Of a stretch of DNA of 64,000 nucleotides, positions 14,006 to 31,168 are shown piece by piece. The DNA is from an uncultured Bacteriovoracaceae bacterium (GTDB lineage: Bacteria > Desulfobacterota > Desulfomonilia > UBA1062). Both the position numbers and the translations under genes were made by a program. The stretch lies in assembly GCA_964572405.1 (NCBI GenBank), contig CAZNGL010000001.1:11553-75552 (forward strand). The letters are read 5' to 3'. How positions within the stretch are numbered: position 1 is the stretch's first letter; the number at the start of each line of letters is the position of its first letter. Under the pieces are notes generated by a model that was given only the letters and a program-made list of their open reading frames with translations, was not told the origin of the DNA and did not search any database.

Positions 14006-14908
14006 ATGAAACAGCGAAACACGGTTCTGCTCATCGGGTTCTTCCTTCTCTTCACGGTCTCCACCATCCATGCCGGCGAGGTCATCACCGACGGCGAGCG
14101 CCAGTGGGCGAAGCAGGCCCTGGCCCAGGAACAGGCCCTGGAGGCAGCCCCTTCACCGAACACGGTGGCGGTGCTGTCCTTCGGCAACCCCTCGGCAGAC
14201 CCCGGGCTGGTGCCGCTCCAGAAGGGCTTCGCCTACCTGCTCATGACCGACCTGTCCCAGGTCCAGGGCATCACGGTGGTGGAGCGCGTCAGGCTCCAGG
14301 CTCTGCTGGAGGAGCTGAAGCTCGGCGCCTCGGGCCTGGTGGAGAAGGCCTCGGCCCCCCGGGTGGGAAGGCTCGCAGGCGCGGGCTACCTCGTGGGGGG
14401 AGACCTCTCCGGGAAGGACCGCTCCGGCCTGTCGGTCACCTCGGACGTGCTCCAGGTGAAGGACCAGAGCAGTCTGGGAAGGCCGTCTGCCGACGGGCTG
14501 CTGGAACAGGTCTTCGATCTTGAGAAGAAGATCCTCTTCGAGGTGGTGGACCTGCTCAAGATCAAGCTCTCCAAGAAGGAGCGGGAAAACCTCAAGCGGC
14601 CGCTCACCACCAGCTATCGGGCCCTGATCTATCTCTCCATGGGCCTCGACGCCAGCGACCGGGGCAACTACACCCGGGCCGACCTCTTCTACCGCAAGGC
14701 CCTGGCCATCGACCCCCAGTTCAGCCCGGCTGCCAGGGCCAGGGAAGAACTCCAGGCCATGAGGCTGGTGGCGGTGAACCCCCAGGCCTTTGCCATCCTG
14801 GCAAGGCAGGAGGAGCAGAACTCGTCCACTGATTCACTGCGCAGGGACGATTCGACCTTCCGCGAGTTCAGGCCACCCACGACCGGGCAGATCCGGGTGA
14901 CGTGGTGA
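14006..14908 (+). CDS. Secreted protein with a CsgG-like (curli channel lipoprotein-like) module and a TPR-like C-terminus
   Basis: Signal peptide MKQRNTVLLIGFFLLFTVSTIHA. Motif VVERVRLQALLEELKLGASGLV...GRLAGAGYLVGGDL matches the CsgG core IPLERQGLQNLLNERKI...AANIMVEGSI as recalled. The start was reset to ATG 14006, which has an SD. Confidence 0.5.
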   Translation: MKQRNTVLLIGFFLLFTVSTIHAGEVITDGERQWAKQALAQEQALEAAPSPNTVAVLSFGNPSADPGLVPLQKGFAYLLMTDLSQVQGITVVERVRLQALLEELKLGASGLVEKASAPRVGRLAGAGYLVGGDLSGKDRSGLSVTSDVLQVKDQSSLGRPSADGLLEQVFDLEKKILFEVVDLLKIKLSKKERENLKRPLTTSYRALIYLSMGLDASDRGNYTRADLFYRKALAIDPQFSPAARAREELQAMRLVAVNPQAFAILARQEEQNSSTDSLRRDDSTFREFRPPTTGQIRVTW

Positions 14909-14922
14909 GAGGGGGGTGAACA

Positions 14923-16872
14923 ATGCAGAACCCGTCGAATGAATGCCGTTCTCACAGCGCGTATACACGGCGTCCTTCCGTCCTTATCATGCTTGCCGCA
15001 TGCATCTCTTCCCTGCTCGCGGTCTCTTGTTCCGGAAGCGGCGGCTCGGACACCGGGAGCGTGGCCTTCACCATCAGGATGCCCCAGAGCCAGACACAGG
15101 CCTTTTCCAAGGCTGCACAGTTCCTCTGCCAGGAGTACGGCATCGCAACGGTTGAGGCCGTGGTCCTCGCATATGACGGAGAAACCGTGATGGGCAGGGG
15201 TGGCCCATGGCCCTGCGATGCCGGGGAAGGGATCGTATCGGGTGTCAAGGAGGGACAGAACTACACCCTCACCGTCAACCTGAGGAACAGGAGCGGCTCC
15301 ATCCTCTTTCGCGGCAGCATATCGGGGATCACCGTTGTTGCCGGCGAGATGACCGATGCGGGGACCATCGAGCCCACCAGCACCAACAGCCCACCTGTGT
15401 TCGTCCCCATGGAAAACCAGCAGGTGAATGCCCAACAGACGCTCACCTTTACCGTGCAGGCCACGGATATCGAGGATAACACACTAACATACAGCGCTGG
15501 ATCTCTGCCCTATGGCGCGTCCTTCAATCCTGACACCCAAACCTTCACCTGGACCCCGAACTCGGACCAGATAGGCTCCTACACCGTATTGTTCGAGGTC
15601 ACAGACGACGGCGTGCCTCAGTTGAACGATACCATGGAGGTTACCATCACCGTCGGCAATGCAAATCAGCCGCCGGTATTTGAAGCAATGACGAGCCAGC
15701 AGGTGTACGAGGGGCAGGAACTAAGTTTCACCGTCTCTGCGACAGACCCTGAGAATGATACCCTGACGTACAGCGTGGTGGAGCCCCCCACAGGGTCAGA
15801 ATTCGATCCGGATACCCAGACATTCTCATGGACCCCCGGCTACACCCAGTCCGGGACCCACACCGTGCAGTTCATGGTCACGGACGACGGCGTGCCCACT
15901 CAGAGCGACACCCTTTATGTCACCATTACCGTGATCAATGTGAACCGGGCCCCCGTTCTCCAATCCATAGGAACCCGTCACTTCACCCTGCTCGACGGAG
16001 GGTCCATAACGGTCTCCGCATACGACCCTGACGGGGACACCCTCACCTACGACATCGCCGGGATGCCTGAGCCTTATGGAGCTGGATACCTGCGAGGCAT
16101 GGCCATCGATCCGGGCACACATGTTTTCACATGGGATCCCGGCTCAGAGGATTATGGTCCCGGCGAGTACAAGGTTCTGTTCAGGGTAACGGACAACGGC
16201 ACCCCGCGGCTCAGCGACTACGAGTGGGTGACCATCCAGGTCTATGACTCTCCCACGGAACTCGATGGAGAGATGTTCCCGGTGCTGACCCATATCGGAA
16301 ACCGTCAGGTGTCTGTGGGCCAACTGCTCCAGTTCAGCGTCTCGGCAACGGATGCTGACCCTACCGCCACGGTGCAATATTATGCCAACACCATTTACGG
16401 GAAGACATATCCCACCGGGGCTTCATTGAGCGCGGGGATCGTACCTCCTGTCTTTACCTGGTCCAATCCGACCCCTGCCGGAAACTACTGGGTGCGTTTC
16501 GTGGCCAACGACAACCACGATGTCTACAACCAGCAGCAGGTGTTCGAAGATGTGGTGATCACCGTGGGCGGTGTAAACAGACCCCCGACGCTGGACCCCA
16601 TCGGTGCACGGCGCGTGGTGAGGGGGGAGTCGATTCAATTCATCGTCACTGCCACGGATCCTGAAAACGGCGCTCTCACCTTTACCGCACAGGGAGTTTT
16701 CAATCTGGATCCGATTGCTCTGCCGAGCGGGGCGTCCCTCAACCAGACGACAAAGGTCTTCACCTGGAACACCCTGGCCGATGAGCCCTATGGCTACCAG
16801 ACGATCCGCATTACGGTCACCGATGCTCAAGGGGAAAGTGATTATGAAGATATCCAGGTGCTCCTATACTAG
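14923..16872 (+). CDS. Lipoprotein made of about six tandem ~95-aa cadherin-like / putative-Ig (He_PIG-like) repeats
   Basis: Lipobox LLAVSC. The repeat unit NxPPVF...Q.V.EGQ.L.FTV.A.DPE.D.LTYS...P.GA.FD.DTQTF.WTP...Q.G.Y.V.F.VTD.G.P...D...VTITV.NVNR.P recurs about six times. The N-terminal domain has two Cys. Confidence 0.7.
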   Translation: MQNPSNECRSHSAYTRRPSVLIMLAACISSLLAVSCSGSGGSDTGSVAFTIRMPQSQTQAFSKAAQFLCQEYGIATVEAVVLAYDGETVMGRGGPWPCDAGEGIVSGVKEGQNYTLTVNLRNRSGSILFRGSISGITVVAGEMTDAGTIEPTSTNSPPVFVPMENQQVNAQQTLTFTVQATDIEDNTLTYSAGSLPYGASFNPDTQTFTWTPNSDQIGSYTVLFEVTDDGVPQLNDTMEVTITVGNANQPPVFEAMTSQQVYEGQELSFTVSATDPENDTLTYSVVEPPTGSEFDPDTQTFSWTPGYTQSGTHTVQFMVTDDGVPTQSDTLYVTITVINVNRAPVLQSIGTRHFTLLDGGSITVSAYDPDGDTLTYDIAGMPEPYGAGYLRGMAIDPGTHVFTWDPGSEDYGPGEYKVLFRVTDNGTPRLSDYEWVTIQVYDSPTELDGEMFPVLTHIGNRQVSVGQLLQFSVSATDADPTATVQYYANTIYGKTYPTGASLSAGIVPPVFTWSNPTPAGNYWVRFVANDNHDVYNQQQVFEDVVITVGGVNRPPTLDPIGARRVVRGESIQFIVTATDPENGALTFTAQGVFNLDPIALPSGASLNQTTKVFTWNTLADEPYGYQTIRITVTDAQGESDYEDIQVLLY

Positions 16873-16896
16873 GTTTTTCTTGAATGAGGTAACGCT

Positions 16897-18021
16897 ATGA
16901 TCCTCCGACTCTGTTACGCCATGATCCTGGTAACGCCCCTCCTGGTCTCACCTGCCCTTGCCCTGGAAAAACAGGCCGCGGGCGGCGTCCTCTTCTCCTG
17001 GTGGCAGGACGACAGCGACGACTCGGGCACCCAGATCGCCATCCCCATCAGGGCCGGCCTCACCTACGGCCAGATCAAGGCGCAGATCCTGAACGCCTAC
17101 GTGTCCACCTCGGTGGACATGGACGAGGGCGGGTCAGAGTCCATCAGCGGGTTCGTGGACACCAAGGTGAACGTGTCCTACACCCTGGAGAGGACCATGG
17201 GCATGGACGTCCTGGCGGGGCTCGGCCTCAACCTCCCCACCGGCCAGACCGACTTCTCCGCAGGCGAACTCGTCCTCACCGCCCTGCCCCCCGAGTTGCT
17301 GCCCATAACCTCCTATGGCGAGGGGTTCAATGTGAATCCCTATCTGGCCGTGTCCAGGGAATGGGAACGGGCCGCCGCGGGGTGCGGGATCGGCTACCTC
17401 TGGCGGGGCGAGTACGACTACAGTGAGCTCATGCCCGAGTTCGACCCGGGGGACGTGATCACGCTCACCGCAGAGGGCCGCTACAGCCACACCGACTACT
17501 TCCAGTCGCGGGTGTTCGCCCAGTATGCCACCTACGGCAAGGACAGCATCGATGGTGAAGACTACTCCAAGGACGGCCCCCTCATGCTCTTCGGCCTGGG
17601 CGGCACCTGTTCCAGATCCTCATGGCAGCTCGATGCGGACCTGTACGGGATATTCAGGGGCAAGACCAAGTACTACGTGGAGACCGCCACGCCCATCGAC
17701 GACGAGAAGAACTACGGCGACGAGTTCCGCGCCGATTTCCTGTACCGGTATTTCCTCACCTCCACCCTCACGCTGAAGTCCTCCCTGGGCTTCCTCACCA
17801 TGGGCGAGAACGGGTATGACAAGGACACCGGGTTCTATGCCGGCGGCAGGCAGAAGATCTCCCTTGGGTTCGGCGCGGAAAAGGAATTCCCAGGGGGTCT
17901 GAAGGCGAACCTCGACCTGACCCTGTTCACTCTAAAGGAAAAGGAGAACTTCTTTCACACCGATGATGACCTGACCTTTACCGGCATTCTGATGAGCGGG
18001 GGCTTGCAAAAGACCTTCTAA
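16897..18021 (+). CDS. Predicted outer-membrane beta-barrel protein (signal peptide, C-terminal aromatic residue)
   Basis: Signal peptide MILRLCYAMILVTPLLVSPALA. Many alternating hydrophobic/polar strands (LKANLDLTLFTL, ISLGFGAEKEF). It ends ...GGLQKTF with a terminal Phe, as OMPs do. Asp/Gly/Tyr-rich loops. Confidence 0.5.
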   Translation: MILRLCYAMILVTPLLVSPALALEKQAAGGVLFSWWQDDSDDSGTQIAIPIRAGLTYGQIKAQILNAYVSTSVDMDEGGSESISGFVDTKVNVSYTLERTMGMDVLAGLGLNLPTGQTDFSAGELVLTALPPELLPITSYGEGFNVNPYLAVSREWERAAAGCGIGYLWRGEYDYSELMPEFDPGDVITLTAEGRYSHTDYFQSRVFAQYATYGKDSIDGEDYSKDGPLMLFGLGGTCSRSSWQLDADLYGIFRGKTKYYVETATPIDDEKNYGDEFRADFLYRYFLTSTLTLKSSLGFLTMGENGYDKDTGFYAGGRQKISLGFGAEKEFPGGLKANLDLTLFTLKEKENFFHTDDDLTFTGILMSGGLQKTF

Positions 18022-18124
18022 TATGATATAATATGTAGTAATAATCCGTTGCTCGTCTGGCGGGAACTACCGGGGTCCGGAACACGTGACCGGCCGAGGC
18101 CGCATCATGACACAACGAGGATGA

Positions 18125-20086
18125 GTGATGGGAACGAGAGGAAAGCCGACATCCAGACCTGAAGGCGACCATGCCCCGTGTTGCCCGGTTTTTTTGCGCA
18201 TTTTCGCAGCACTCCTGTTCCTTCTCCTCCTCGGCGCCTGCAGCCAGCGCGATGACTCTTCCGGCACCGGCGGCATCACCTTCACCATCAACCCTCCGGC
18301 GGATTACGTTTCTACCAAGGCAGCAGTGTTCCCGTGCGACGAACTGCACATCGTCACGGTCCAGGCCGAACTCTTTGATTCGGCAGAGAGCCTCGTCGTG
18401 TCCAGCGAACCCTGGGAATGCGGCTCCGGCCAGGGCATGCTCCCTGACATCAGACCGGGCGAGGGATATACCCTGGTCATCTCCCTCATGAACGAGCAGG
18501 GCGCTGTGCGCTACCGCGGTACCAAGGACGGCCTGCGGGTCCGCATGGGCAGGATCACCGATGCCAGGGGCATCGACCTGGAGAGGCTCAACCTGGTCCC
18601 GGTCTTCGAGGAAATCGAGGCCAAGGAGGTCAGGGCCGGGCAGACCCTGGAGTTCAGGGTGAACGCCGTCGACCCGGACGGAGACCCCATCACCTACTCC
18701 GTCCTTTCCCTGCCCGAAGGCGCGTCCTTCGACCCTGGAACCGGCCGCTTCTCCTGGACCCCGTCGAACAGCCAGTCAGGCGTCTACCTGGCCAGCTTCC
18801 AGGTGAACGACGAGTTCGACGAGCCTGACGCCGATGTCCTGGAGGTGTACATCGTGGTCACCGGGCCCAACCTGCCGCCCGAGTTCGATACCTTAAGGAC
18901 GCAGCGGGTCCAGGAGGGACAGTCCCTGAGGTTCACGGTGCAGGCATCCGACCCGGATGGCGATGCCGTGACCTACCGGGCCGTATCGTTGCCCCCTGGA
19001 GCGTCTTTCAACACCACCACGGGCCTCTTTTCTTGGAGGCCCGGCTACACCCAGGCACGGACCTATGTCATCCGGTTCGAGGCCACGGACGACAGCAATC
19101 CCCCGCAGACCTCATACCTGGACGTGACCGTCGTGGTCACGAACACCAACCGTTCCCCCGTGGTGGATGTCCCTGAGGGGATCCAGCGGGTGGGCACCAC
19201 CGGGACCCTGCAGTTCACCGTATCAGCGACGGACCCCGACGGGAACTCCCTGACCTTTGCAGCGGCGAACCTGCCCAGGGATCCCTACGGCACCTATTTC
19301 CCGGGCGTGGCCTTCGACGAGGCCACCGGGTCCTTCCGGTGGGTCGCGCCGGGTCCGGCCGCGGTGGGCGAGTACCACGTCCTGTTCATCGTCACCGACT
19401 CGGGCAGTCCTGCACAACGCGTCTACCGGACAGTCACCATCCTGGTCTACGACGACGTGCTGCCCCGCCGGTACCCGGTGCTCGCCGCCATCGGCCCCAG
19501 GCAGGCAGATCCCGGCGAAGAAGTGCGATTCACGCTCAGCGCCTCTGACCCGGACTACCCCGATGGCGGCCTGGATTCCCTGGACTTCAGCATGGAGCCC
19601 ATCCCGGGGTATGACTTCCCGAATGGGGCGTCCATAAACAACCTCTCCCGGGAGTTCAGCTGGGACGCCCTGGAACAAGGCAACTACCGGGTGCGCTTCA
19701 GGGTGAGAGACCCCGGCGACCCCGCATACATGTCCGACCACGAGGACGTGGTGATCACCGTGGGCAGCGTGAACCGGCCTCCGGTGCTGGAACCCATCGG
19801 CAACCGGGTGGTATTCAACCGCAACACAATAGAGTTCCCTGTCTTCGCCACGGATCCCGACGCAGGTGATACCCTCACCTACAGCGCGGACGGCCTGCCT
19901 GAGGGCGCAACCTTCGATGCGGCCGCGCATACGTTCTCCTGGACACCCTGGTACTACGACGACAAACCCCTGGGAGCCAAGTGCATCCCGCCCCTGACCG
20001 TGACCGTGAGGTTCTGGGTCCATGACAGCGGTTCACCCCGGGAGAGCGACTACGAGGACGTCCAGATCACGGTGTTCTTCGAATGA
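18125..20086 (+). CDS. Paralogous lipoprotein with ~6 cadherin-like/He_PIG-like tandem repeats
   Basis: Lipobox LLLGAC. The repeat architecture and two-Cys N-terminal domain match the 14923..16872 product (e.g. NLPPEFDTLRTQRVQEGQSLRFTVQASDPDGDAVTYRAVSLPPGASFNTTTGLFSWRPGYTQ). Confidence 0.7.
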   Translation: MMGTRGKPTSRPEGDHAPCCPVFLRIFAALLFLLLLGACSQRDDSSGTGGITFTINPPADYVSTKAAVFPCDELHIVTVQAELFDSAESLVVSSEPWECGSGQGMLPDIRPGEGYTLVISLMNEQGAVRYRGTKDGLRVRMGRITDARGIDLERLNLVPVFEEIEAKEVRAGQTLEFRVNAVDPDGDPITYSVLSLPEGASFDPGTGRFSWTPSNSQSGVYLASFQVNDEFDEPDADVLEVYIVVTGPNLPPEFDTLRTQRVQEGQSLRFTVQASDPDGDAVTYRAVSLPPGASFNTTTGLFSWRPGYTQARTYVIRFEATDDSNPPQTSYLDVTVVVTNTNRSPVVDVPEGIQRVGTTGTLQFTVSATDPDGNSLTFAAANLPRDPYGTYFPGVAFDEATGSFRWVAPGPAAVGEYHVLFIVTDSGSPAQRVYRTVTILVYDDVLPRRYPVLAAIGPRQADPGEEVRFTLSASDPDYPDGGLDSLDFSMEPIPGYDFPNGASINNLSREFSWDALEQGNYRVRFRVRDPGDPAYMSDHEDVVITVGSVNRPPVLEPIGNRVVFNRNTIEFPVFATDPDAGDTLTYSADGLPEGATFDAAAHTFSWTPWYYDDKPLGAKCIPPLTVTVRFWVHDSGSPRESDYEDVQITVFFE

Positions 20087-20092
20087 GAAAAG

Positions 20093-20118
20093 GGGCCCTG
20101 CGATAGTCCGCAGGGCCC
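20093..20118. terminator. Bidirectional rho-independent terminator between convergent genes
   Basis: Perfect 10-bp GC-rich inverted repeat GGGCCCTGCG-atagtc-CGCAGGGCCC. A T-rich run follows it on the minus strand (TTTTCTCATT) and a weaker one on the plus strand (GTTCGCCTTTC). Confidence 0.5.
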
Positions 20119-20181
20119 GTTCGCCTTTCAGGTACATCTGTGGGTCTCTTGAGATTTAGTGGCTGTTCGCTGCGGTAACTC

Positions 20182-20682
20182 CTATTCCGGGAACAGCAGG
20201 CTGCCTGCCTGGCGGGCGGCATCCAGCCACCCGGCAAAGTCCGATGAACCGGCGGTCTTCTTCACTGCGCCCATGACCCTGCCCGTTTCCACATCCACCC
20301 GTCTCAGGTCGATGCGCATGGCGGAGCCCACCACCATGTACCCCCCGAAGACCATCTCCCTGGCGCCCAGCATCCTGCCCACCCGCAGCCGCGTCTCCTC
20401 GTCTGCAAGCTCAGAGCTGCCGAGCCGGAGTTCCTCCATGACCGCGATGAGCCTGTCCCGCTCCACCACGGTGATGTCCCGTCTCGCCTGGAGGGTCTGG
20501 ATGATCTCGCCGGAAAGGACCTGGCCGAGGTCCGGCCGTGCACCCAGGGCCGGGCTCAGGTCCTCCAGGTCCCACACCGCCACGGCGCGGATCTCCTCAT
20601 GAACGGCCCCGGTGGTGGCACACCCGGTCACGCACAGGAGGCATGCCAGCGCACAGGCCGAAATCGCTAGGCGGCAGCGCAC
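20182..20682 (-). CDS. Lipoprotein with a CsgG-like module
   Basis: Lipobox LLCVTGC. Motif VVERDRLIAVMEELRLGSSELADEETRLRVGRMLGAREMVFGGYMVVGS...RIDLRRVDVETGRVMG parallels the CsgG motifs (ERQGLQNLLNE, GS-IIG, LRVVNVSTGEIL). Confidence 0.55.
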   Translation of the reverse strand: MRCRLAISACALACLLCVTGCATTGAVHEEIRAVAVWDLEDLSPALGARPDLGQVLSGEIIQTLQARRDITVVERDRLIAVMEELRLGSSELADEETRLRVGRMLGAREMVFGGYMVVGSAMRIDLRRVDVETGRVMGAVKKTAGSSDFAGWLDAARQAGSLLFPE

Positions 20683-20686
20683 CTCC

Positions 20687-22636
20687 CTACTCCCTCAGCG
20701 CCTGCTCGTCGAGCTTCTCGATGATCTTGTCGTCCCGGGTGATGGGCCTCGTCTGCTCCACGATACGGCAGTAGGCAAGCCCGGGTTCGGTCTTTGTCAC
20801 CTCGAGAAGGCCCACGTGGGTCGGGGCGGACCTGAGCTTCCGGCTCTTGTACTCCACCTCCCTGCCCTCCTCGATGACCTCGAACTTCGTCCCTGCCACC
20901 ACTCCCTGCTCTGACCCGAGGTTGATCATGACGCGGCCGTCCTTGACCTCCACCACGTAGGCCTTCAGGGGATGCTCCCTGATGACGGAGCCCAGGATCT
21001 GCCGGTTGATCTTGAACAGGTCTGCGCTCTGGGGGCCACCGGGCGCCATCTGCAGGGTGATCACCTTGTCCACTGCGGTGGTCTCGGTGTCGATGAGCCG
21101 CATGTTCAGCAGGGACCCTTCGGCCATGGTGAACAGGGTCCCGGTGCCCAGCACCCTGGCGGCGAGCACCCTGCCGAGCTTCAGGGAGGTCTCGGGGTCG
21201 GCGAGCTCCGAGGAGCCGAGGTTCAGCTCCTCCAGGAGCCTGTCCAGGAGGACGCGGTCCACCACCTTCACCCGGCCGGAGGCCTTGAGCTGTTCTGAGA
21301 GCTGGGAGGTGAGCACGGTGGCCATGCCGTCGCGCTCCGACAGGCCGCCCTGCTCCTGGAAGTCCACGAAGGAGACGACCACGGCCGGAGAAGTCCAGGT
21401 GTCCTCGGGCCTGGGCCGTTTCTGCTGCTCGCGGAACCGCTGAGCCAGCTCCTTCACCAGCTTGTCCACGCGTTCCCTGCGGGCGGTGTCCTGCTGGTAC
21501 CTGAGCCTCTCCATCGCCCTGGCCGCCAGGACCGCGGAGAACTCGTCCTGCCTGTTCACGCCCTGCCCCTGCTGGTACATCTCAAGGGCCTTGTCCCACT
21601 TGCCTTCCTTCTCAAAGGTGACGCCCTTGTTGGCCATGGCCTCCACGTTGTAGGGGTCCAGGGCCACGGCCTGGTCGTAGAGGCTCCGGGATGTCTGGTA
21701 GTCCTTCACGCTGGCATAGAGTCGGCCCAGTTTGTTGTATGCCACGGTCTTCTGGTAGGGCTCTGCCTCGTCCTTCTTCGTCGCGGCCTCGTACTCGTCC
21801 TGGGCCTCCTTCTTCCTGTTCTGGGCGTAGAGGATGTCCGCCTTCACCACGTGGGCATAGGAACGGTTCGGGGCCTTCTTCTGGACCTCTCCGGCAAGGG
21901 CCAGTGCCCTGTCGGCCTTTCCCTGCCGCGCATACACCGCCGCCAGGCCCTCCTTGCCGAGGATCTCGGCCTTGCCGGAGCCCCTGGCAAGCTTCGTGAA
22001 GGTCTTCTCCGCATCACTCACCTTGCCTGCCTTCAGGGCCGCGTACCCGCTCACCGCCAGTGCCTGGTCGTTGTCCGGGCTCTTCCTGGCCACCTCATTG
22101 CCGATGGCCATGGCGAGCGTAGTATCCTTCTGCTGGAGCTTGCGCTCGGCAAGGCGTACCAGCATGACGTTCGTGGTCTTGCCGCCGCCCTGGAACACGT
22201 CCATGACCTTGAGGTTCGGCCCGACGATATAGACCGCAGGGAGGATGGTCCCGGCGCTGTACAGCTCGCTCACCGACCCGGTGTCGAGGAGTATGGGGAA
22301 GGTGGGCTTGGCCGTGGATGCAAAGGCGCTGGCATACTCCCTGGGCGAACGGGTGATGCCCCACACGGAGAGGTTCTCACCCTTGTATTTCTTGGCGATC
22401 TGGTCCAGGCCCAGCAGCCCCTCCTGGGACGGCCGGGATGCCGCGTCGAAAAAGTAGAGCACCAGCATGGGGCTGGCCTTCATGGCGGCCAGATCGTGCG
22501 TCTTTCCCGAGAGGTCTTTCAGCGAAAAGGCAGGCGCTGCCTGTCCCGCTTTCAGGGCATGGACCGGCGGTGCTCCCACCGCGGCCATCGCCAGGGCCAG
22601 CACCAGGCATGGGGCAATGCGTTTGATATAGTTCAT
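20687..22636 (-). CDS. Secreted tri-domain protein: redoxin/thioredoxin-like fold (no CxxC), TPR repeats, C-terminal CsgG-like module
   Basis: Signal peptide MNYIKRIAPCLVLALAMAAVGAPPVHA and an SD before ATG 22636. The AhpC/TSA-like block LKDLSGKTHDLAAMKASPMLVLYFFDAASRPSQ lacks the catalytic Cys. The TPR-like middle contains YNKLGRLYASVKDYQTSRSLYDQAVALDPYN. The C-terminus VVDRVLLDRLLEELNLGSSELADPETSLKLGRVLAARVLGTGTL is CsgG-like. Confidence 0.6.
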   Translation of the reverse strand: MNYIKRIAPCLVLALAMAAVGAPPVHALKAGQAAPAFSLKDLSGKTHDLAAMKASPMLVLYFFDAASRPSQEGLLGLDQIAKKYKGENLSVWGITRSPREYASAFASTAKPTFPILLDTGSVSELYSAGTILPAVYIVGPNLKVMDVFQGGGKTTNVMLVRLAERKLQQKDTTLAMAIGNEVARKSPDNDQALAVSGYAALKAGKVSDAEKTFTKLARGSGKAEILGKEGLAAVYARQGKADRALALAGEVQKKAPNRSYAHVVKADILYAQNRKKEAQDEYEAATKKDEAEPYQKTVAYNKLGRLYASVKDYQTSRSLYDQAVALDPYNVEAMANKGVTFEKEGKWDKALEMYQQGQGVNRQDEFSAVLAARAMERLRYQQDTARRERVDKLVKELAQRFREQQKRPRPEDTWTSPAVVVSFVDFQEQGGLSERDGMATVLTSQLSEQLKASGRVKVVDRVLLDRLLEELNLGSSELADPETSLKLGRVLAARVLGTGTLFTMAEGSLLNMRLIDTETTAVDKVITLQMAPGGPQSADLFKINRQILGSVIREHPLKAYVVEVKDGRVMINLGSEQGVVAGTKFEVIEEGREVEYKSRKLRSAPTHVGLLEVTKTEPGLAYCRIVEQTRPITRDDKIIEKLDEQALRE

Positions 22637-22724: not shown

Positions 22725-23429
22725 TCATTTTCCCTTCAGCAGTGCATCCCGGTGCACCCGGAGGATCTGCACATCGGCCGTCCACTCCTCCAGTTCAGGG
22801 ACGGTCCTTGCACGGTACACGGCTAGTTCCTCGCAGCAGTGCTTGGGGAAGCCCCGGCACGAGGGGTCACCGATGAGCACGGTCTTCCCCGAAGCTGCGG
22901 CGCGCAGGAGCCACCGGTGGTCCTGGCCGTGATAGAATGCGTCTGCAGCCATGATGATACCCCAGTCTCCCGGGATCCCGTCTTGTGTGTCTCCCTGAAC
23001 GGGCCTGACGGCAACCCCATTGAGCAGGGCGTTCAAACGCACCGCGCACAGGGCCACAGGGTCGATATCTGCCGCCGTGACGGACACCGCTCCCGCCATC
23101 GCAGCGGCGATGGCGCATGTCCCTGATCCCGCGCCCAGGTCGACCACCGTATGGCCGCTGACATATCCGGGGTTGTCCAGGATGAACCGTGCCAGACCCT
23201 GCCCTGCCGCCCATGCGAAGGCCCAGTAGGGCCTCGGGCCCTCCCAGGCGAAGAGGTGGGGATCGCCGTTCATGAGCGGGGCGGCGTCCTTCATGGGGGC
23301 GTCCGGACTGAGCAGGCGGAGCCGTATCTCCGGGCACAACGGCGGGGAGACGACCGTGGTGTTCGCAAGGATGAACGCATCAAGGTCATGCGCCGGGGCC
23401 GCCGTATCCTGGAACGCCCTGCACCTCAT
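22725..23429 (-). CDS. Class I SAM-dependent methyltransferase (protein-lysine/RsmC-like small methyltransferase fold)
   Basis: Motif I HTVVDLGAGSGTCAIAAAMAGA and the acidic motif VTAADIDP. The start was set at MRCRAF (ATG 23427-23429), which overlaps the upstream stop by 4 nt (ATGA). Confidence 0.6.
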   Translation of the reverse strand: MRCRAFQDTAAPAHDLDAFILANTTVVSPPLCPEIRLRLLSPDAPMKDAAPLMNGDPHLFAWEGPRPYWAFAWAAGQGLARFILDNPGYVSGHTVVDLGAGSGTCAIAAAMAGAVSVTAADIDPVALCAVRLNALLNGVAVRPVQGDTQDGIPGDWGIIMAADAFYHGQDHRWLLRAAASGKTVLIGDPSCRGFPKHCCEELAVYRARTVPELEEWTADVQILRVHRDALLKGK

Positions 23430-24085
23430 TCCGGCACCGGCCGATGGCCGATGAAGGCATGGTATCCGTTGCCGGGGATCAGCTCCACGACCGCACTCCG
23501 TACGAAGCCCGCATCTTCCATCTGGCGCAGCATCTCGTCTCTTTCCGGGAGCCTCCCCCATCCGCGGGTCCCTGAGTGGATCAGGTTCACCAGTTCGAAC
23601 TCGATGCTTCCGCCCAGGCACCCCGTGGTGATGACGATGCGTCCTCCCGGCCTGAGGAGCCCGAGGAGTTGCCCGAGCACGGTCACGCGGTCTTCGACGG
23701 GGAAGTAGTAGATGTTGTTGTAGAGCGTCAGGATGTCGAAGGGCTCGGAGGAGTGGCAGTCCCTCACGTCTCCCGCCAGGATCTCCACCCGGTCCTGCAG
23801 CCCCATCTCCCGGATGGCGCGGCAGGCGCCCTCCCTGAGGACACCCAGCCGGACCCCCAGGTGAAGCCAGGCCTGGGCGGCCGAGCTCAGCGACGGGTCC
23901 GCGCCGGGCCCTCCCAAGAGGTCCCGATCAGTAACGGGGCCTCGGTTCAGCCGTTCCAGAACGACACTTTCGGCCAGACAGGCAAGGAAGCACACGCGGT
24001 AGAACGTGGTGAACATCAGCTTGAGCCTGAGCAGCACCAGGGCCTTGCCGCCCCTGACCAGGGAAGCCAGTGTCTTCATACGCAT
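23426..24085 (-). CDS. O-methyltransferase-like protein, apparently lacking SAM-binding motif I (degenerate or possible pseudogene)
   Basis: N-terminal winged-helix dimerisation-like segment ACLAESVVLERLNRGPVTDRDLLGGPGADPS. C-terminal OMT motifs RVEILAGDVRD...FDILTLYNNIYYF...LLRPGGRIVI. The usual DVGGGxG block is missing between them. The start is uncertain (GTG 24124 or ATG ~24085). Confidence 0.4.
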   Translation of the reverse strand: MRMKTLASLVRGGKALVLLRLKLMFTTFYRVCFLACLAESVVLERLNRGPVTDRDLLGGPGADPSLSSAAQAWLHLGVRLGVLREGACRAIREMGLQDRVEILAGDVRDCHSSEPFDILTLYNNIYYFPVEDRVTVLGQLLGLLRPGGRIVITTGCLGGSIEFELVNLIHSGTRGWGRLPERDEMLRQMEDAGFVRSAVVELIPGNGYHAFIGHRPVPE

Positions 24086-24145
24086 CCCGTCACCCCTGTG
24101 CCCGTGCGCACAAACCCATGGCACTCCCTCTGACCTGTTTCTCCC

Positions 24146-24481
24146 TTACTTCATGTCCCGGAACTTCACCTCGATGGCACTGATGTCCTCGATGCGCACC
24201 AGGGCATCGTAGAAATCCCTTCCGGCGAGCTTTTCCAGGTGGACAAGGCCGTTGCCCACTGACTTGACATAGCCCTGCAGGGTCTTCCCGGACCGCAGGT
24301 GGACGATGACGTCCTTGCCGACGAGCGGCTTGAGATTGTCGGCAAGGGACGCTGCCGTGTTATAGCCTACCCCTTCGATGGCTGTGATGGACTTGGCCTG
24401 GGCCTGGGGAATCAGGGGCACGCCCCAGCACAGGCTGACGGCCACCACCGCCGCAACGATGTATCCGATCTTGCCCTTCAT
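24146..24481 (-). CDS. Small secreted hypothetical protein (~111 aa)
   Basis: MKGKIGYIVAAVVAVSLCWGVPLIPQAQA signal-like N-terminus. A purine-rich SD (GGAGAGGAGAAAGGAGAGGG) lies upstream. No recognisable domain. Confidence 0.4.
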   Translation of the reverse strand: MKGKIGYIVAAVVAVSLCWGVPLIPQAQAKSITAIEGVGYNTAASLADNLKPLVGKDVIVHLRSGKTLQGYVKSVGNGLVHLEKLAGRDFYDALVRIEDISAIEVKFRDMK

Positions 24482-24572
24482 ACCCTCTCCTTTCTCCTCT
24501 CCATGGTTTAGAAAACAACCACACCGGTGGTACCGCCACGGCACAAATGCCTGCAGGTCCTCCCCGGGTCGG

Positions 24573-25739
24573 TCATCGGGCAGTGAAGCGGACAGAGGCC
24601 GGGCCCGTCACATGCCCGCGTGCAGACACCCCTCGAACCGTGATGGTCAGGGACTGTCCCAGGTCTTTCTTCCTGCAGCTGAATCCATCGCCCTTGAGCA
24701 CCCCCCAGGACCCCGTGCCTGTGCGCATCTCATAGTGGTCGAAATTCAGGATATTGTTCCGGAGCGTGAAGTCATACGCCTTGGGCTGCTCCGTCATTCC
24801 TATCACGATCTGATTGACCGGGGCATACACGAGCTTTGCATCGTGGACTGTCCTGATGGACAGGTTGTCCTTGTAGGTCTTCCACGCGGGATCGTTCTCT
24901 TCACTCTCCGTGGCCCTTGCCAGGTGGAAGAGAGAGCCCTTCTGGTGGGCGAGATACGGCTCGTTCCCTGCGTGGAAATAATTAGACTGGAAGGCAATGA
25001 CCAGGCGGTGGAAGAGCTCGCCGCCTATCACATCGATCCGCTCGGGCCGTTCCGTATCCCTCCTGGGGGTGATCCGCCACCGGGCAGGCTCCTTCCCCGC
25101 AACGAGCTCCTCCTGAACCTCTCTGGCATTCATCGGAGTGCCCTCATCATCAACCCAGCAGATGTTCAGGTCCACATCCTGGACCACCCATTTCTGCAGA
25201 TGTTCGCTCCACACCTCCGTGAACGTGTGGGACGACAAGGGCTTGCCCTGAGAGGACGAGTAGACGTGTACGAGCCGGACCGGGACATCGTACGAGAGCA
25301 GCAGCCCGGCATATGCCACGCTGAAGGGGCCGCAGGTGGCCGAATAGTCCCTGTCGCCCCTGATCTTCTCCAGCATGAGAGGCGGATAGAACTTCACCTT
25401 GAATGCCCCGGAACCATGGCGGGAGGTCTCCCTCATCCACAGACGCAAGGCATGAAACCATTCCACATCGTTGCCGTACCTATCCGCAGGGGGTGGGTTC
25501 AGCTCCCGGATGCGCCGGACCCCGTCTCCGTCGTCCACCATCCACCTATCCAGCGCCTGGTAGGTATAGTCCGCGATGACACCGTCCGAGATCCGGACAT
25601 CGTACTGCACTGCCGTGCCGGCGTCTCCCTGCGTTCGGCACCCCCCGCACCAGGAAAGCCACAGCATCATGACAAGAAACCAGACCGTTTGAAATCTCAT
25701 AAAAATACTCCCCCGCTGCATGGATCCTGTGTTGCGCAC
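24573..25739 (-). CDS. Transglutaminase-like cysteine protease superfamily lipoprotein
   Basis: Hydrophobic N-terminus FLVMMLWLSWCGGC. Candidate Cys-His-Asp core: ATCGPFSVAYAGLL, SHTFTEVW, WVVQDVD. Confidence 0.5.
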   Translation of the reverse strand: MRNTGSMQRGSIFMRFQTVWFLVMMLWLSWCGGCRTQGDAGTAVQYDVRISDGVIADYTYQALDRWMVDDGDGVRRIRELNPPPADRYGNDVEWFHALRLWMRETSRHGSGAFKVKFYPPLMLEKIRGDRDYSATCGPFSVAYAGLLLSYDVPVRLVHVYSSSQGKPLSSHTFTEVWSEHLQKWVVQDVDLNICWVDDEGTPMNAREVQEELVAGKEPARWRITPRRDTERPERIDVIGGELFHRLVIAFQSNYFHAGNEPYLAHQKGSLFHLARATESEENDPAWKTYKDNLSIRTVHDAKLVYAPVNQIVIGMTEQPKAYDFTLRNNILNFDHYEMRTGTGSWGVLKGDGFSCRKKDLGQSLTITVRGVSARGHVTGPASVRFTAR

Positions 25740-25780: not shown

Positions 25781-26941
25781 TCAGTCCTCGACCGGTATCA
25801 GCTCCACCGTGAGGGGTTCCCCGCCTTCCTTTTCCACCTGCACCCGGGCCTCCCACTCGTAGTGCCCGGGCATGCTCAGGCGCACCTCGTGGCCCCCCAC
25901 GGGCAGGTCCAGCGTCGTGGGGGCCGTGCCCTTGAGGCTGCCGTCCACGTAGACCTGCGCGCCCGCGGGATCGCTGCTGACCTGCAGGCTGCCCATGTCC
26001 ACCGGCGGCTCCTTTTTTCCCGTGAGCATGAAAAGAGCCACCACGGCAATGACGCAGATGACAGCCAGGGCGGCCAGGATCATGACCAGGGGCCCCTTCT
26101 CTTTCCCGGCCCCGGCCCCTTTCACCCCTTCGCCTGTCCTGAGGAAGGCCCGCAGGGCCTCGGACAGCTCGTGGCCGGTCCTGAAACGCTTCTCCGGGTT
26201 CTTCTCCAGGCACCTGAGGATCACGCCGGACAGTCCCTCGGGCACCTCGGGGTTCAGCGCCTCGGGCCGTGCCGGGGTCTCGCTGGTGATGGCGTGGAAG
26301 ATGGCAGCCAGGTTCTCTCCCTTGAAGGGGCGGGACCCGGTGGCCAGCTCGTAGAGGATCACGCCCAGGGAGTAGAGGTCGGAGCGGCCGTCCACCTTCT
26401 TCCCCATGACCTGCTCGGGGGACATGTAGTTGGGCGTGCCCAGGATCTCCCCCGCCTGGGTCTGGTGGCTCGCCTCGGGGTCCTCCACGTGGGCGATGCC
26501 GAAGTCCGTGAGCTTCACCACCCCCGTGGGCGCCACCATGATGTTCTGCGGCTTGATGTCGCGGTGCACGATGCCCCGGGTGTGGGCGTAGTCGAGGCTG
26601 TCCGCCACCTGGATGCCGATGTCAGCGATCTGCTCCATGGTGAGCGCCCTGTCCCGGGCATAGGCGTTGAGCGCCTCTCCCTCGAGGAACTCCATGGCGA
26701 TGTACACCGTGGACTGGTCCTGGCCCACGTCGTACACAGTGACGATGTTCTGGTGCGACATGCGGCCGATGGCGCGCGCCTCCTTGAGGAAGCGCTGCAC
26801 GAAGTCCTCGCTGCTCACCCGGTCGGGCCTCAGCACCTTGAGCGCGATGGTCCTGCCGATCTGGGGGTCCTGGGCCTGGTAGACCACGCCCATGGAGCCC
26901 TTGCCCAGTTCCTTGACGATCTCGTAGCGGCCGTAGTTCAT
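25781..26941 (-). CDS. ppkA: Ser/Thr protein kinase (Hanks-type, PpkA-like) with TM segment and C-terminal PEGA domain
   Basis: GKGSMGVVYQA...ALKVL (lysine), HRDIKPQN catalytic loop, DFG, GTPNYMSPE. TM segment LVMILAALAVICVIAVVALFML. PEGA-like motif VYVDGSLKGTAPTTLDLPVGGHEVRLSMPGH. Confidence 0.85.
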   Translation of the reverse strand: MNYGRYEIVKELGKGSMGVVYQAQDPQIGRTIALKVLRPDRVSSEDFVQRFLKEARAIGRMSHQNIVTVYDVGQDQSTVYIAMEFLEGEALNAYARDRALTMEQIADIGIQVADSLDYAHTRGIVHRDIKPQNIMVAPTGVVKLTDFGIAHVEDPEASHQTQAGEILGTPNYMSPEQVMGKKVDGRSDLYSLGVILYELATGSRPFKGENLAAIFHAITSETPARPEALNPEVPEGLSGVILRCLEKNPEKRFRTGHELSEALRAFLRTGEGVKGAGAGKEKGPLVMILAALAVICVIAVVALFMLTGKKEPPVDMGSLQVSSDPAGAQVYVDGSLKGTAPTTLDLPVGGHEVRLSMPGHYEWEARVQVEKEGGEPLTVELIPVED

Positions 26942-26944
26942 GAG

Positions 26945-27916
26945 CTATCGTTCCTTTACGAAGGCGATGACGGTCTGGAGCGGCACCAGCAGGCCCGAGC
27001 GGTGGTCGGACTTCATCCTACCCTGCACCACGCCCACGAGGTCCCCCTGCTCGTCGAACACCGGGCTCCCGCTGCTCCCGGGCTCCACCTCCATGCGCAC
27101 CTGGATGAGCGGCTGCCCCTCCACGAGCCGCGGCGGTCCGCTCACCACGCCGGATATCACGGTCCCCGCGTAACCCCTGGGGCACCCGATGGTGAACACC
27201 CTGATCCCCGATCCGGGCGCGGGATCGTGGTTGTTCAGGCTCACCGCGTCTTCGAAGGCCCTGGAGCAGTCGATGAGCGCCAGGTCCTTCTTGAAGTCGA
27301 TCTTCACGATGGCGCCCCCCACACTCCTGCCCGCAGGTGGGATGATGGTGATCTCCGTGGGGTCTTTCAGCATGTGCGCGGTGCACAGGATCAGTCCCGA
27401 GGTGTCCACCACGAAGCCGGAGAGCTGGATGGGCCGGCCCTTCACCACGGCCCGGATGCACACCGACGAGCCCTTGCGGCGCTGCACCTGGGCCGGCACT
27501 TCCCGGGGCGGGAACCCCCGGGCGGAGAAGGTGCCGTCCTGGTAGTCCCCGAGGAAGCTCCACAGGGCATCGGCCCTGCCCTTGAGGGTATCGCCGGACT
27601 TCACCACCGTGGCCAGCGGGGAATTGTATTTCAGCGTGATCTCCCACGGCGCGTTCTGCTTGATTGCCTTGAGCACCACCTTGTCCGCCGGGTTCTCGGC
27701 TGTGACCGAGTAGCCTGCCTTGACCAGCCAGTCCGTTATCACCTGCTCGGCCTCGTACCGGGGGATGTCGAAGACCCTCTCCCGGTCGTCATCGGCGGCA
27801 GAGACGAGCTGCGCTCCCAGCAGGATGAGGAACAGCGCCGGTACCAGAAGCCGCACGGCCAGTGTCCTGATTCCTGACGTGCGGCCGCTCGGGGATTGCC
27901 GGTTGCCCGTTGTCAT
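26945..27916 (-). CDS. Secreted trypsin-like serine protease (S1/HtrA-like fold, no PDZ)
   Basis: Signal peptide. Catalytic triad context CTAHML (His), DLALID (Asp), GSSGSPVFD (Ser). Confidence 0.7.
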   Translation of the reverse strand: MTTGNRQSPSGRTSGIRTLAVRLLVPALFLILLGAQLVSAADDDRERVFDIPRYEAEQVITDWLVKAGYSVTAENPADKVVLKAIKQNAPWEITLKYNSPLATVVKSGDTLKGRADALWSFLGDYQDGTFSARGFPPREVPAQVQRRKGSSVCIRAVVKGRPIQLSGFVVDTSGLILCTAHMLKDPTEITIIPPAGRSVGGAIVKIDFKKDLALIDCSRAFEDAVSLNNHDPAPGSGIRVFTIGCPRGYAGTVISGVVSGPPRLVEGQPLIQVRMEVEPGSSGSPVFDEQGDLVGVVQGRMKSDHRSGLLVPLQTVIAFVKER

Positions 27917-28632
27917 GCGATCCTCGCCAGTACCACTGTAACGTTGTCCTTTCCCCCGGCCGTCTTGGCGTCATCGATGAGCCGGCCCGCCATGTCCTTG
28001 AGTGCGAGGCCTTGCGCCATGCATCGGAGGATCCTGTTGTCATCGATCATATCGGACAGACCGTCCGAACACAAAAGGAAGATGTCCCCCGGCTGGCACC
28101 TGCCCCTGAGGATGTCGAGCTCCACGTGGTCCTTAGACCCGACGGCGCGGAGGATCACATGGCGCATGGCATGGGTGCGGGCCTCCTGTGCGCTGATGAT
28201 CCCCCTGTTCACCTGGTCCTGTACCAGGGAGTGGTCCACGGTGAGCTGCTTGAGCTCGCCTGTGCGGAGCCGATAGGTGCGGCTGTCGCCCACGTGGCCG
28301 ATGACCACCTCGTCTCCCCGGACCGCGAGTATTTCGGCGGTGCACCCCATTCCCGCATGGTCGGGATGCGCTGCCACATGCTGGAGCATCCGGGTGTTCG
28401 CCAGGGTGAAGGAGCGCTTCACCTTCTCCTCCAGGCCGGCCGCATCATCCTGATCGGTGAAGACCTCCACGCAGGTGTCCACGAAGATGCCGCTCGCGAT
28501 CTCTCCCGCAGCAGCGCCTCCCATGCCGTCGGCCACGGCGCAGAAGCCCAGGTCGGGCCGCGTCGCAAAGGCGTCCTCGTTGTTCGTGCGTTTCAACCCC
28601 ACATCACTCGCGCCGTAGTACTCCACCTTCAT
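27913..28632 (-). CDS. pppA: PP2C-family Ser/Thr phosphatase (PppA/Stp-like)
   Basis: SDVGLKRTNNEDAF, VADGMGGAAAGEIAS, LLCSDGLSDM and DNVTVVLARI motifs. Confidence 0.85.
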   Translation of the reverse strand: MKVEYYGASDVGLKRTNNEDAFATRPDLGFCAVADGMGGAAAGEIASGIFVDTCVEVFTDQDDAAGLEEKVKRSFTLANTRMLQHVAAHPDHAGMGCTAEILAVRGDEVVIGHVGDSRTYRLRTGELKQLTVDHSLVQDQVNRGIISAQEARTHAMRHVILRAVGSKDHVELDILRGRCQPGDIFLLCSDGLSDMIDDNRILRCMAQGLALKDMAGRLIDDAKTAGGKDNVTVVLARIA

Positions 28633-30232: not shown

Positions 30233-30261
30233 CCGGGTCCCGGTTTCTTTCGTGCGGTCCT

Positions 30262-31098: not shown

Positions 31099-31129
31099 CA
31101 GGCCACCTCCGCCTCGTCGTCCTATCCCC

Positions 31130-31158
31130 TTGACACATCCTGCCCGAGCCTGTAATTT
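31130..31158 (+). promoter_or_regulatory. Sigma70-like promoter for fha (near-leaderless transcript)
   Basis: TTGACA (31130-31135), 17 nt, then TAATTT (31153-31158) with TG immediately upstream. Predicted TSS ~31165, only ~4 nt before ATG 31169; no SD. Confidence 0.35.
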
Positions 31159-31168
31159 CTCCAGACGT

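Follow-up and report, generated by a model that had tools for sequence, protein, structure and literature searches.

The T6SS phosphorylation pathways TagQRST-PpkA-PppA-Fha1 of Pseudomonas aeruginosa and RtkS-PpkA of Serratia marcescens share a Ser/Thr kinase that sits in the membrane and has a periplasmic domain, together with a PP2C phosphatase and FHA protein(s), all encoded inside the T6SS gene cluster. An outer membrane lipoprotein and periplasmic proteins, otherwise uncharacterised, are co-operonic with these (PMC6082577; PMC13584744), and the upstream inputs of the pathway vary between lineages (PMC6082577). TasL, which belongs to T6SS2 of Vibrio fischeri, is a large predicted lipoprotein with Ig-like (fn3-type) modules that serves cell-cell contact for killing (PMC9040878; PMC13584744). 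When and where a T6SS fires is understood in few Proteobacteria only, and the upstream sensors differ in each.

The DNA analysed here (the window) is a stretch of 64,000 nucleotides from an uncultured Bacteriovoracaceae bacterium that is placed in the Desulfobacterota by GTDB (assembly GCA_964572405.1, contig CAZNGL010000001.1). It carries what looks like an undescribed outer membrane/periplasmic input module for the T6SS kinase/phosphatase firing switch. An ORF check found six genes, A to F, where an earlier note on this DNA had placed them, A-D on the plus strand and E-F on the minus strand, together with two short signals:

14006-14908, plus strand: A, periplasmic protein with a Sec signal peptide, a TolB-N/CsgG-like module and a helical/TPR-like C-terminal half
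14923-16872, plus strand: B, lipoprotein, predicted outer-membrane; N-domain of ~110 aa with two Cys, then five He_PIG (Ig/cadherin-like) repeats
16897-18021, plus strand: C, predicted outer-membrane beta-barrel with a signal peptide and a C-terminal Phe
18004-18032: promoter-like site ahead of D
18125-20086, plus strand: D, paralogue of B, lipoprotein (LLGAC lipobox); N-domain as in B, five He_PIG repeats
20093-20118, minus strand: terminator-like hairpin in the convergent D/E gap, with an 11-bp stem, 9 G-C pairs and a T-rich tail
20182-20682, minus strand: E, small lipoprotein, predicted outer-membrane (VTGC lipobox), with a single domain of the TolB-N/LpoB/CsgG/PelC fold
20687-22636, minus strand: F, 649-aa periplasmic scaffold with, in this order, a Trx fold, a TPR array, a TolB-N/FlgO-like module and an FlgT_C/TsaP-like beta domain

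A to F are the left end of a contiguous 48-kb T6SS gene cluster, and housekeeping genes start to the left of A. The cluster is read on the minus strand from 61895 to 20182, with E and F as its final genes. Its other features are:

25781-26941, minus strand: Hanks-type Ser/Thr kinase, PpkA analogue; single TM helix, PEGA domain in the periplasm (Pkinase 197.7 bits, PEGA 58 bits)
26945-27916, minus strand: periplasmic HtrA/DegS-like serine protease (Trypsin_2 74.2 bits; DegP/DegS-like by NCBIfam)
27913-28632, minus strand: PP2C Ser/Thr phosphatase, PppA analogue, Stp1 family (235.5 bits, cut-off 230)
28745-30811, minus strand: FHA domain fused to an SLT lytic transglycosylase (Pfam)
31067-32149, plus strand, divergent: double-FHA protein, TagH/Fha-like (FHA 107.5 bits)
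32163-61895, minus strand: remaining T6SS cluster, in the order small PAAR-position protein, VgrG, two DUF2169 proteins, methyltransferase, VipA/VipB-like fusion, ClpV, TssG, TssF, TssE, Hcp, TssC, TssB, TssA, TagJ, TssM, TssK and TssJ

The kinase, the PP2C phosphatase and the FHA proteins sit between VgrG and F. The double-FHA protein scores 77.9 bits (E 1.3e-21) against TIGR03354 (TagH), for which the curated cut-off is 120.25. The protease has the His/Asp/Ser triad and no PDZ domain, and its gene overlaps that of the phosphatase by 4 nt. Five genes lie between kinase and F in the window: two for methyltransferases, one each for a small secreted protein and a transglutaminase-like protein, and one doubtful ORF. 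On the plus strand, the gaps of 14 nt between A and B and of 24 nt between B and C suggest an operon. The hairpin of the D/E gap is oriented such that the long minus-strand operon would terminate after E. A lipobox is found in B, D and E only; A and F carry ordinary signal peptides, as C carries a signal peptide.

B and D are paralogues, with 41% identity across 633 residues (E 3e-130). As the earlier note had proposed, both are lipoproteins with two Cys in the N-domain, here located beyond the lipid Cys (C69/C98 in B, C71/C99 in D), followed by repeats of cadherin-like/putative-Ig type. He_PIG scores in Pfam are 140.7 bits for B and 160.2 bits for D (cut-off 24), and Big_9 and Cadherin_4 also exceed their cut-offs in both proteins. 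The number of repeats had been put at about six; an iterated repeat profile gives exactly five per protein, of 88-100 aa each.

The protein encoded between them, C, is confidently predicted to be an outer-membrane beta-barrel of ~16-18 strands, in agreement with the earlier reading of it. It has the general features of such proteins, i.e. a signal peptide, a predicted closed antiparallel barrel and a C-terminal aromatic residue. DSSP applied to the model counts 18 strands, and loop lengths suit neither orientation cleanly. C consists of the barrel only, the strands beginning at residue 24, straight after the signal peptide; its most conserved part is residues 103-186, which include a helix-containing loop (114-144). 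The barrel family has 813 representatives at E<=1e-10. Among 66 members, 13 match Phenol_MetA_deg, 11 OMP_b-brl and 6 MipA in Pfam, and none matches DUF560 (PF04575) at E<=0.01. Membership of Slam/DUF560 was accordingly rejected, despite one UniRef label of 'DUF560 domain-containing' on a homologue of C.

A is annotated publicly as 'TolB-like protein'. Its signal peptide is of the Sec type, with cleavage after ...IHA, and the TolB-N/CsgG-like module is found at residues ~72-134. The Pfam CsgG match (34.4 bits) covers profile positions 37-98 of 210, and there is a weak TPR match as well.

One module is common to A, E and F, and all three pass the Pfam CsgG (PF03783) threshold of 20.8 bits, E with 39.2 bits and F with 27.2 bits. 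They share the periplasmic alpha/beta domain of CsgG and the VVER..L..LLEEL motif. The CsgG identity drawn from this motif in the earlier note thus holds at the level of the profile threshold; it does not extend to the channel. Coverage is only about positions 9-98 of the 210, or half of the profile. E has 166 aa and its AF2 model is a compact alpha/beta domain. Its best fold matches are TolB-N and LpoB, with PelC and the flagellar LPHT-ring protein also found, a fold that is that of OM-proximal periplasmic partner proteins. In the profile alignment with CsgG, E has ~5 residues at the position of the hairpin, and searches of the PDB with the E profile gave only marginal CsgG matches (E 0.14). 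When A, E and F were searched against the PDB as single sequences, only TPR and ResA-type matches came up. The module of A, E and F is predicted to have the TolB-N/LpoB/PelC periplasmic fold without the CsgG transmembrane hairpins, and CsgG-type secretion logic therefore does not apply. The ~165-aa family of E-type lipoproteins is auto-annotated 'CsgG/HfaB family' despite the absent channel hairpins.

F has Pfam matches to AhpC-TSA/Redoxin and to TPR, and bears out the earlier description of one module protein as fused to a Cys-less redoxin fold and TPR repeats. SRPS replaces CxxC in its thioredoxin fold, which is thus predicted to be redox-dead, and the replacement is conserved family-wide. 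FlgO scores 21.3 bits against a cut-off of 22.6 and FlgT_C 18.8 bits against one of 27, so that both are sub-threshold. A profile of the C-terminal part has 6ve2_O as its top match in the PDB (E 0.02), and the FlgT_C and TsaP matches (E 0.002 and 0.02) are below significance. PelC, FlgT, TsaP and CsgG, ring-forming relatives of the E and F domains, suit a structural role equally to one in signalling.

Conservation was assessed in 80 species-level loci retrieved through C; those with strain names come from Desulfosarcina alkanivorans PL12 (L023) and D. widdelii PP31 (L026). A is found in 71 of these, E in 47, F in 46, the protease in 35, the kinase in 33 and PP2C in 29. In the 71 loci the A homologue is directly upstream of C. 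A and C are paired almost invariantly and in most cases converge on the kinase-F-E cassette, and F is always paired with E in the loci compared. Thirty-six loci have at least 3 kb of sequence past F; here protease, kinase and PP2C are found together in 26, protease alone in six, protease with kinase in two, and none of them in two, so that the protease is present in 34 of 36. The kinase adjoins F in most related loci; six loci of Desulfosarcina type have E-F and the protease and no adjacent kinase. The FHA-SLT fusion is found in 11 related loci.

Sampling anchored on E (loci L088-L090) gave the order VgrG-(PAAR)-FHA|PP2C-protease-kinase(PEGA)-F-E in three of three loci, with the position of the double-FHA protein kept; A-C is not nearby in one of them. 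Thus PP2C, HtrA-like protease, kinase (PEGA), F and E constitute a conserved cassette, which elsewhere immediately follows VgrG/PAAR and faces a TagH-like FHA protein. In the C-anchored sample, T6SS core genes are found within +-10 kb in 19 of the 80 loci, some of them without E-F. Thirty-seven loci extend at least 9 kb to either side; in 15 of them no T6SS core gene and no kinase, PP2C or FHA gene lies within 10 kb.

The family of N-domain lipoproteins was defined from the retrieved loci; a homologue search with the N-domain of B by itself, limited by its word prefilter, gave no match. Ig-repeat lipoproteins with the N-domain of B and D occur in 28 of the 80 loci, and only between A and C (22 genes) or directly after C (8 genes), which agrees with the assignment of these lipoproteins to the barrel in the earlier note. 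The other 52 loci have no such lipoprotein; where none is present, A directly abuts C. With this absence from 52 of 80 loci, the two He_PIG lipoproteins are a lineage-specific addition to the module. The repeat part varies between He_PIG, cadherin-like, fn3 and beta-helix/PMP, and hhalign relates the N-domain of the He_PIG class to that of the fn3 class with 91% probability (E 1e-6). Some A-lipoprotein-C units stand alone amid housekeeping genes, and A-C may therefore have a T6SS-independent function.

The earlier note had named, as findings that would speak against it, a central protein that is periplasmic or soluble, failure of the CsgG motif in profile searches and lack of co-conservation. 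None of the three was found: C is predicted to be a barrel, the CsgG profile threshold is passed and the genes are co-conserved elsewhere. Its larger proposal, a cell-envelope island that may be a novel adhesin display or secretion apparatus, stands as a list of parts. It does not stand as a free-standing system, in that the genes are the end of a complete T6SS cluster, E-F belong to a kinase/PP2C/protease operon near VgrG and the He_PIG lipoproteins are absent from most loci.

The reading preferred here, to which we would give an even chance, is that the six genes are an envelope-facing accessory arm of the T6SS, a lineage-specific sensor/adhesin input to its threonine-phosphorylation switch. 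C and A would be partners in a complex anchored in the OM, which would hold or expose the repeat lipoproteins via their N-domain, and B and D, by analogy with TasL, may have a role as adhesins or in target recognition. When a neighbour makes contact or the outer membrane is disturbed, the signal would be relayed via E and F to the kinase's PEGA domain. In F, the groove of the redox-dead thioredoxin fold and the TPRs may act as binding surfaces, and the HtrA-like protease may supply a cleavage step in the relay. By analogy with the described pathways, the kinase would then phosphorylate the FHA protein and so license T6SS assembly, and PP2C would reset the switch. In favour of this are the T6SS setting, the conserved cassette, the localisation signals, the predicted barrel, the fold of E and the placement of the lipoprotein genes. 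The 15 loci with neither T6SS core nor switch genes nearby, the stand-alone units, the Desulfosarcina-type loci, the five genes between kinase and F in the window and the ring-forming relatives speak against it.

A more far-reaching form of this is speculative and, taken whole, unlikely. Here the locus would be a trans-envelope 'touch receptor' of the T6SS, in which C and A hold or expose diversifying lipoproteins with Ig (fn3, beta-helix) repeats, and engagement of these, or outer membrane damage, is relayed via the TolB-fold lipoprotein, the redox-dead Trx/TPR/FlgT-like scaffold and the HtrA-like protease to a PEGA kinase that licenses firing; the arrangement would be conserved in Desulfobacterota, Nitrospirota and Geobacter-like lineages.

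Perhaps the role is structural instead: E, F and A would form OM-proximal periplasmic rings which, with C, anchor or position TssJLM or give it an exit site, the FHA-SLT protein opening the peptidoglycan. That relatives of the E and F domains form rings is in its favour. However, E and F are tightly operonic with kinase, phosphatase and protease rather than with TssJLM, and the canonical OM anchor is not missing, as TssJ is present. With the FlgT_C and TsaP matches below significance and A-C also found away from any T6SS genes, a structural role is judged improbable.

Much the same low likelihood is assigned to autonomous display, the reading of the earlier note, whereby A-C would export the adjacent repeat lipoproteins or display them on the surface by a Slam-like logic, and the link to T6SS would be co-location or a loose coupling through adhesion. 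The strict placement of lipoprotein genes with a shared N-domain, the repeat parts, which are typical surface modules, and the stand-alone loci are all consistent with it, and the split into a periplasmic TPR protein and a barrel echoes the Slam domain plan. On the other hand, 52 of 80 loci have no such lipoprotein, none of the 66 barrels matches DUF560, and E-F and their kinase operon are left unexplained. A polymer secretion channel of curli (CsgG) or Pel (PelBC) type, suggested by the CsgG matches, is highly implausible and both identities were rejected, since these matches are limited to the periplasmic half, E has TolB-N and LpoB as its closest folds and ~5 residues where CsgG has a TM hairpin, and a Pfam scan of window ORFs turned up neither csgA/B/E/F nor genes of pel biosynthesis.

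As an envelope-facing arm of the T6SS, the module is a conserved multi-component candidate sensor/adhesin arm in anaerobic phyla of the environment, where T6SSs have hardly been studied. An outer membrane beta-barrel, a periplasmic protease of its own and a thioredoxin that is catalytically dead are new among T6SS accessory genes, and together they provide a concrete, testable route from cell surface to firing switch. By a term search, 'barrel' does not occur in a 2026 review of T6SS accessory genes, and open-access literature on T6SS in connection with CsgG/PpkA, PEGA, TolB-like proteins or Desulfobacterota yielded no description of the module. Two sizeable uncharacterised families are defined, the C barrel and the ~165-aa lipoprotein. 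If the 'touch receptor' reading is true, it would represent a new T6SS signalling architecture across Desulfobacterota, Nitrospirota and Geobacter-like lineages.

With respect to known systems, the module falls outside the Slam, CsgG and PelBC families, and the earlier remark that it matches neither Slam nor CsgG is upheld. Slam (type XI secretion) is similar at the gene level in having a TPR-containing periplasmic part, an OM barrel and, as in 28 of the 80 loci, a neighbouring lipoprotein. Here, however, the TPR-like part is on a separate protein, A, with none fused N-terminally to barrel C, and it is an N-terminal domain that the lipoproteins share, whereas Slam cargo has a C-terminal barrel domain. 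The likeness to CsgG is the passing of the PF03783 threshold; in contrast to CsgG, only E is a lipoprotein among A, E and F, and both the transmembrane hairpins and the csg partners are missing. With PelBC, where a ring of PelC lipoprotein lies under the TPR-porin PelB, E shares a resemblance in fold only. TPR and barrel are on separate proteins here, with neither a fused TPR-porin nor, in the scanned window ORFs, any pel genes, the partners are a kinase, a phosphatase and the T6SS, and TolB-N and LpoB fit the fold of E better.

FlgT/FlgO/FlgP of the flagellar H-ring and TsaP of the type IV pilus secretin place TolB-N-like and FlgT_C-type beta domains around an envelope-spanning machine. F is weakly alike (FlgO, FlgT_C, 6ve2_O) and E matches the LPHT-ring protein; however, the F matches are sub-threshold, F also has Trx-like and TPR parts, and no flagellar or pilus genes are found near E/F. 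B and D, like TasL, are T6SS-cluster lipoproteins with Ig-like repeats. The likeness is at the level of architecture: unlike TasL, B and D have an N-domain specific to them, and their operon also encodes a barrel and a TolB-like protein.

Pfam and NCBIfam scans of window ORFs turned up no equivalents of TagQ/R/S/T or RtkS. The periplasmic domain is VWA-like in P. aeruginosa PpkA and a PEGA domain in the kinase of this window. The place of the TagQRST and RtkS inputs is taken by a lipoprotein of TolB-N fold, a scaffold with Trx-like, TPR and FlgT-like parts, the HtrA-like protease and an OM barrel together with its periplasmic partner. By analogy, the locus thus appears to follow the same logic as TagQRST-PpkA-PppA-Fha1 or RtkS-PpkA, but with unrelated parts.

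In Pfam scans the rest of the window is one long minus-strand T6SS cluster, and metabolic genes lie left of gene A; the six envelope genes at 14006-22636 are therefore the edge of a T6SS island. The earlier note had read them as a separate cell-envelope island, possibly an adhesin display or secretion apparatus; the genes are present as described, but the separate island is not. The observation is confirmed apart from small corrections, and all six open reading frames were found where that note placed them:

14006-14908, plus strand: A, ordinary signal peptide
14923-16872, plus strand: B, lipoprotein, leader ending in Cys
16897-18021, plus strand: C, predicted outer-membrane barrel, ordinary signal peptide
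18125-20086, plus strand: D, lipoprotein, leader ending in Cys
20182-20682, minus strand: E, lipoprotein, leader ending in Cys
20687-22636, minus strand: F, ordinary signal peptide

B, D and E are classed as lipoproteins because the hydrophobic leader ends in Cys. A-B-C-D converge on the T6SS operon, with gaps of 14 nt and 24 nt within A-B-C, and a terminator-like hairpin is found 3′ of E.

The minus-strand order is TssJ, TssK, TssM, TagJ, TssA, TssB, TssC, Hcp, TssE, TssF, TssG, ClpV; then a fusion resembling VipA/VipB, one methyltransferase gene, two DUF2169 genes and VgrG. Next come FHA-SLT, PP2C, a protease of HtrA type and a Ser/Thr kinase that has a PEGA domain and a single TM helix. F and E are last, separated from the kinase by several inserts specific to the lineage. 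A double-FHA gene similar to TagH is transcribed divergently. The fused sheath gene (41758-43263, minus; T6SS_VipA 48 bits, VipB 219 bits) is a second, VipA/VipB-like one in the cluster that also holds canonical TssB/TssC, and has homologues near A-C in two related loci. At 37883-40956 (minus), a 508-aa methyltransferase (MTS/DUF7059/DUF7782) neighbors a ∼510-aa ORF that has no Pfam match and is of ambiguous strand (37883-39433 minus or 37898-39421 plus); the pair recurs by T6SS/A-C genes in at least seven other loci. The 688-aa fusion of FHA and SLT lytic transglycosylase (28745-30811, minus) is kept in 11 related loci, and suggests a coupling between the phosphorylation switch and the opening of peptidoglycan for the T6SS. 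Directly after VgrG, a 135-aa ORF (32163-32570, minus) with only a sub-threshold DUF3540 match is in the position held by PAAR-like proteins (DUF4280, Tox-PAAR-like) in two other loci. Between the kinase and F (22725-25739, minus) are genes for two secreted proteins, one transglutaminase-like and the other small and of the MM0924 family, together with two methyltransferase-like ORFs that in their long forms overlap by ∼200 nt and so have uncertain starts. Among these inserts, the MM0924-family protein alone has a homologue in the related loci, in the nearest relative and no other. Beyond TssJ, an ORF of at least 459 aa (62620-63999, minus) continues past the window end and has no Pfam match. 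Scanning of the window ORFs turned up no TssL/DotU, so this ORF may encode a divergent TssL or be some other accessory gene.

B and D are full-length paralogues, as had been proposed (41% identity over 633 residues, E 3e-130). Both match He_PIG (140.7 and 160.2 bits; Pfam cut-off 24) and pass the Big_9 and Cadherin_4 thresholds. An N-domain of ∼110 aa with two conserved Cys residues precedes the repeats, again as proposed, but an iterated repeat profile gives five repeats in each rather than about six. F combines an AhpC/TSA-redoxin domain with TPRs, which bears out the proposed fusion with a Cys-less redoxin fold: at residues ∼60-72 S-R-P-S stands in place of the thioredoxin CxxC and keeps the proline, and 'YFFDxxSRPSQE' is kept in most of ∼45 F homologues. 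The site looks like a dedicated non-redox binding groove. The C family has 813 representatives at E≤1e-10; among 66 members, 13 match Phenol_MetA_deg, 6 MipA and none DUF560. The most conserved stretch, residues 103-186, includes a helix-containing 31-residue loop.

The genes are co-conserved elsewhere. Eighty species-level loci were fetched via C homologues and searched with window proteins: A is immediately upstream of C in 71, and E and F are present in 47 and 46, nearly always arranged C → ← E-F. Of the 80 loci, 35 have the protease, 33 the kinase and 29 PP2C. Where enough sequence extends beyond F, all three occur in 26 loci, the protease only in six (Desulfosarcina type) and none in two. 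T6SS core genes are within 10 kb in 19/80 loci, some without E-F, but this flank limit undercounts linkage: the window itself would be missed, since VgrG is 14.5 kb from C. In a second sample, reached through E, all three loci have VgrG-(PAAR)-FHA|PP2C-protease-kinase(PEGA)-F-E, one without adjacent A-C. Nine loci lack E-F nearby and have, upstream of A-C, an additional short gene resembling A; several adjoin VgrG/DUF2169, and the additional gene may substitute for E.

Fourteen genome loci contain 20 ORFs with the B/D-type N-domain; these are 410 to 1300 aa long, and all have leader and Cys. In 14 more loci (Geobacter-like and Nitrospirota) a second class of lipoproteins combines a related N-domain (hhalign probability 91%, E 1e-6) with fn3 repeats that follow it. 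One class or the other is present in 28/80 loci, with 22 genes between A and C and 8 directly after C, and A and C abut in the remaining 52. The B/D pair is thus a lineage-specific elaboration, and the conservation of its slot would link such lipoproteins to the function of A-C. An autonomous device for displaying lipoproteins is an improbable alternative. Against a strict T6SS link, 15/37 full-flank loci have no T6SS or kinase genes within 10 kb, and two A-lipoprotein-C units are placed among housekeeping genes. One Desulfomonilia MAG has two such units. One adjoins E-F-kinase-protease-PP2C; within 10 kb of the other, neither E-F nor any kinase or T6SS core gene was detected. The unit can therefore occur in duplicate and apart from the T6SS cassette.

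The module described as CsgG-like in A, E and F passes the Pfam CsgG gathering score, covering only the first half of the profile. Compared with known folds it gives 13.3 for the TolB N-terminal domain, 12.9 for LpoB, 12.4 for CsgG, 11.8 for a flagellar LPHT-ring protein, 11.7 for PelC, 9.7 for GNA1162, 8.9 for TraT and 7.8 for LptE. The extreme C-terminus of F weakly resembles FlgT_C (Pfam) and weakly matches chain 6ve2_O (E 0.02), which we take to be secretin-associated TsaP. A structural ring or anchor role is also unlikely. Aligned to CsgG, the module has ∼5 residues at the position of the transmembrane hairpin; it is therefore a periplasmic, outer membrane-proximal TolB-N/LpoB fold and not a channel, and CsgG- or Pel-type secretion is very improbable.

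The best-supported reading, for which we consider the case evenly balanced, is that A-F feed the T6SS threonine-phosphorylation switch with input from the envelope, in a form specific to the lineage. E, F and the protease would act on the PEGA domain of the kinase, and A-C would be an outer membrane unit carrying adhesin-like lipoproteins; the analysis establishes gene content, localization signals, folds and synteny, and every protein contact and the direction of signaling are inferred. In public databases the proteins are annotated as 'hypothetical', 'TolB-like', 'CsgG/HfaB family' and 'TPR repeat protein'. Targeted searches of open-access literature found no account of the module, and a term search of a 2026 review of T6SS accessory genes found no mention of CsgG, barrel, PEGA or Desulfobacterota. 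The module belongs with T6SS post-translational control and accessory modules, yet is made of unrelated parts. TagQRST and RtkS, inputs of a type whose diversity from lineage to lineage is documented (PMC6082577), parallel the proposed envelope input, and TasL, an adhesin encoded in a T6SS (PMC9040878), parallels the adhesin-like lipoproteins of the A-C unit.
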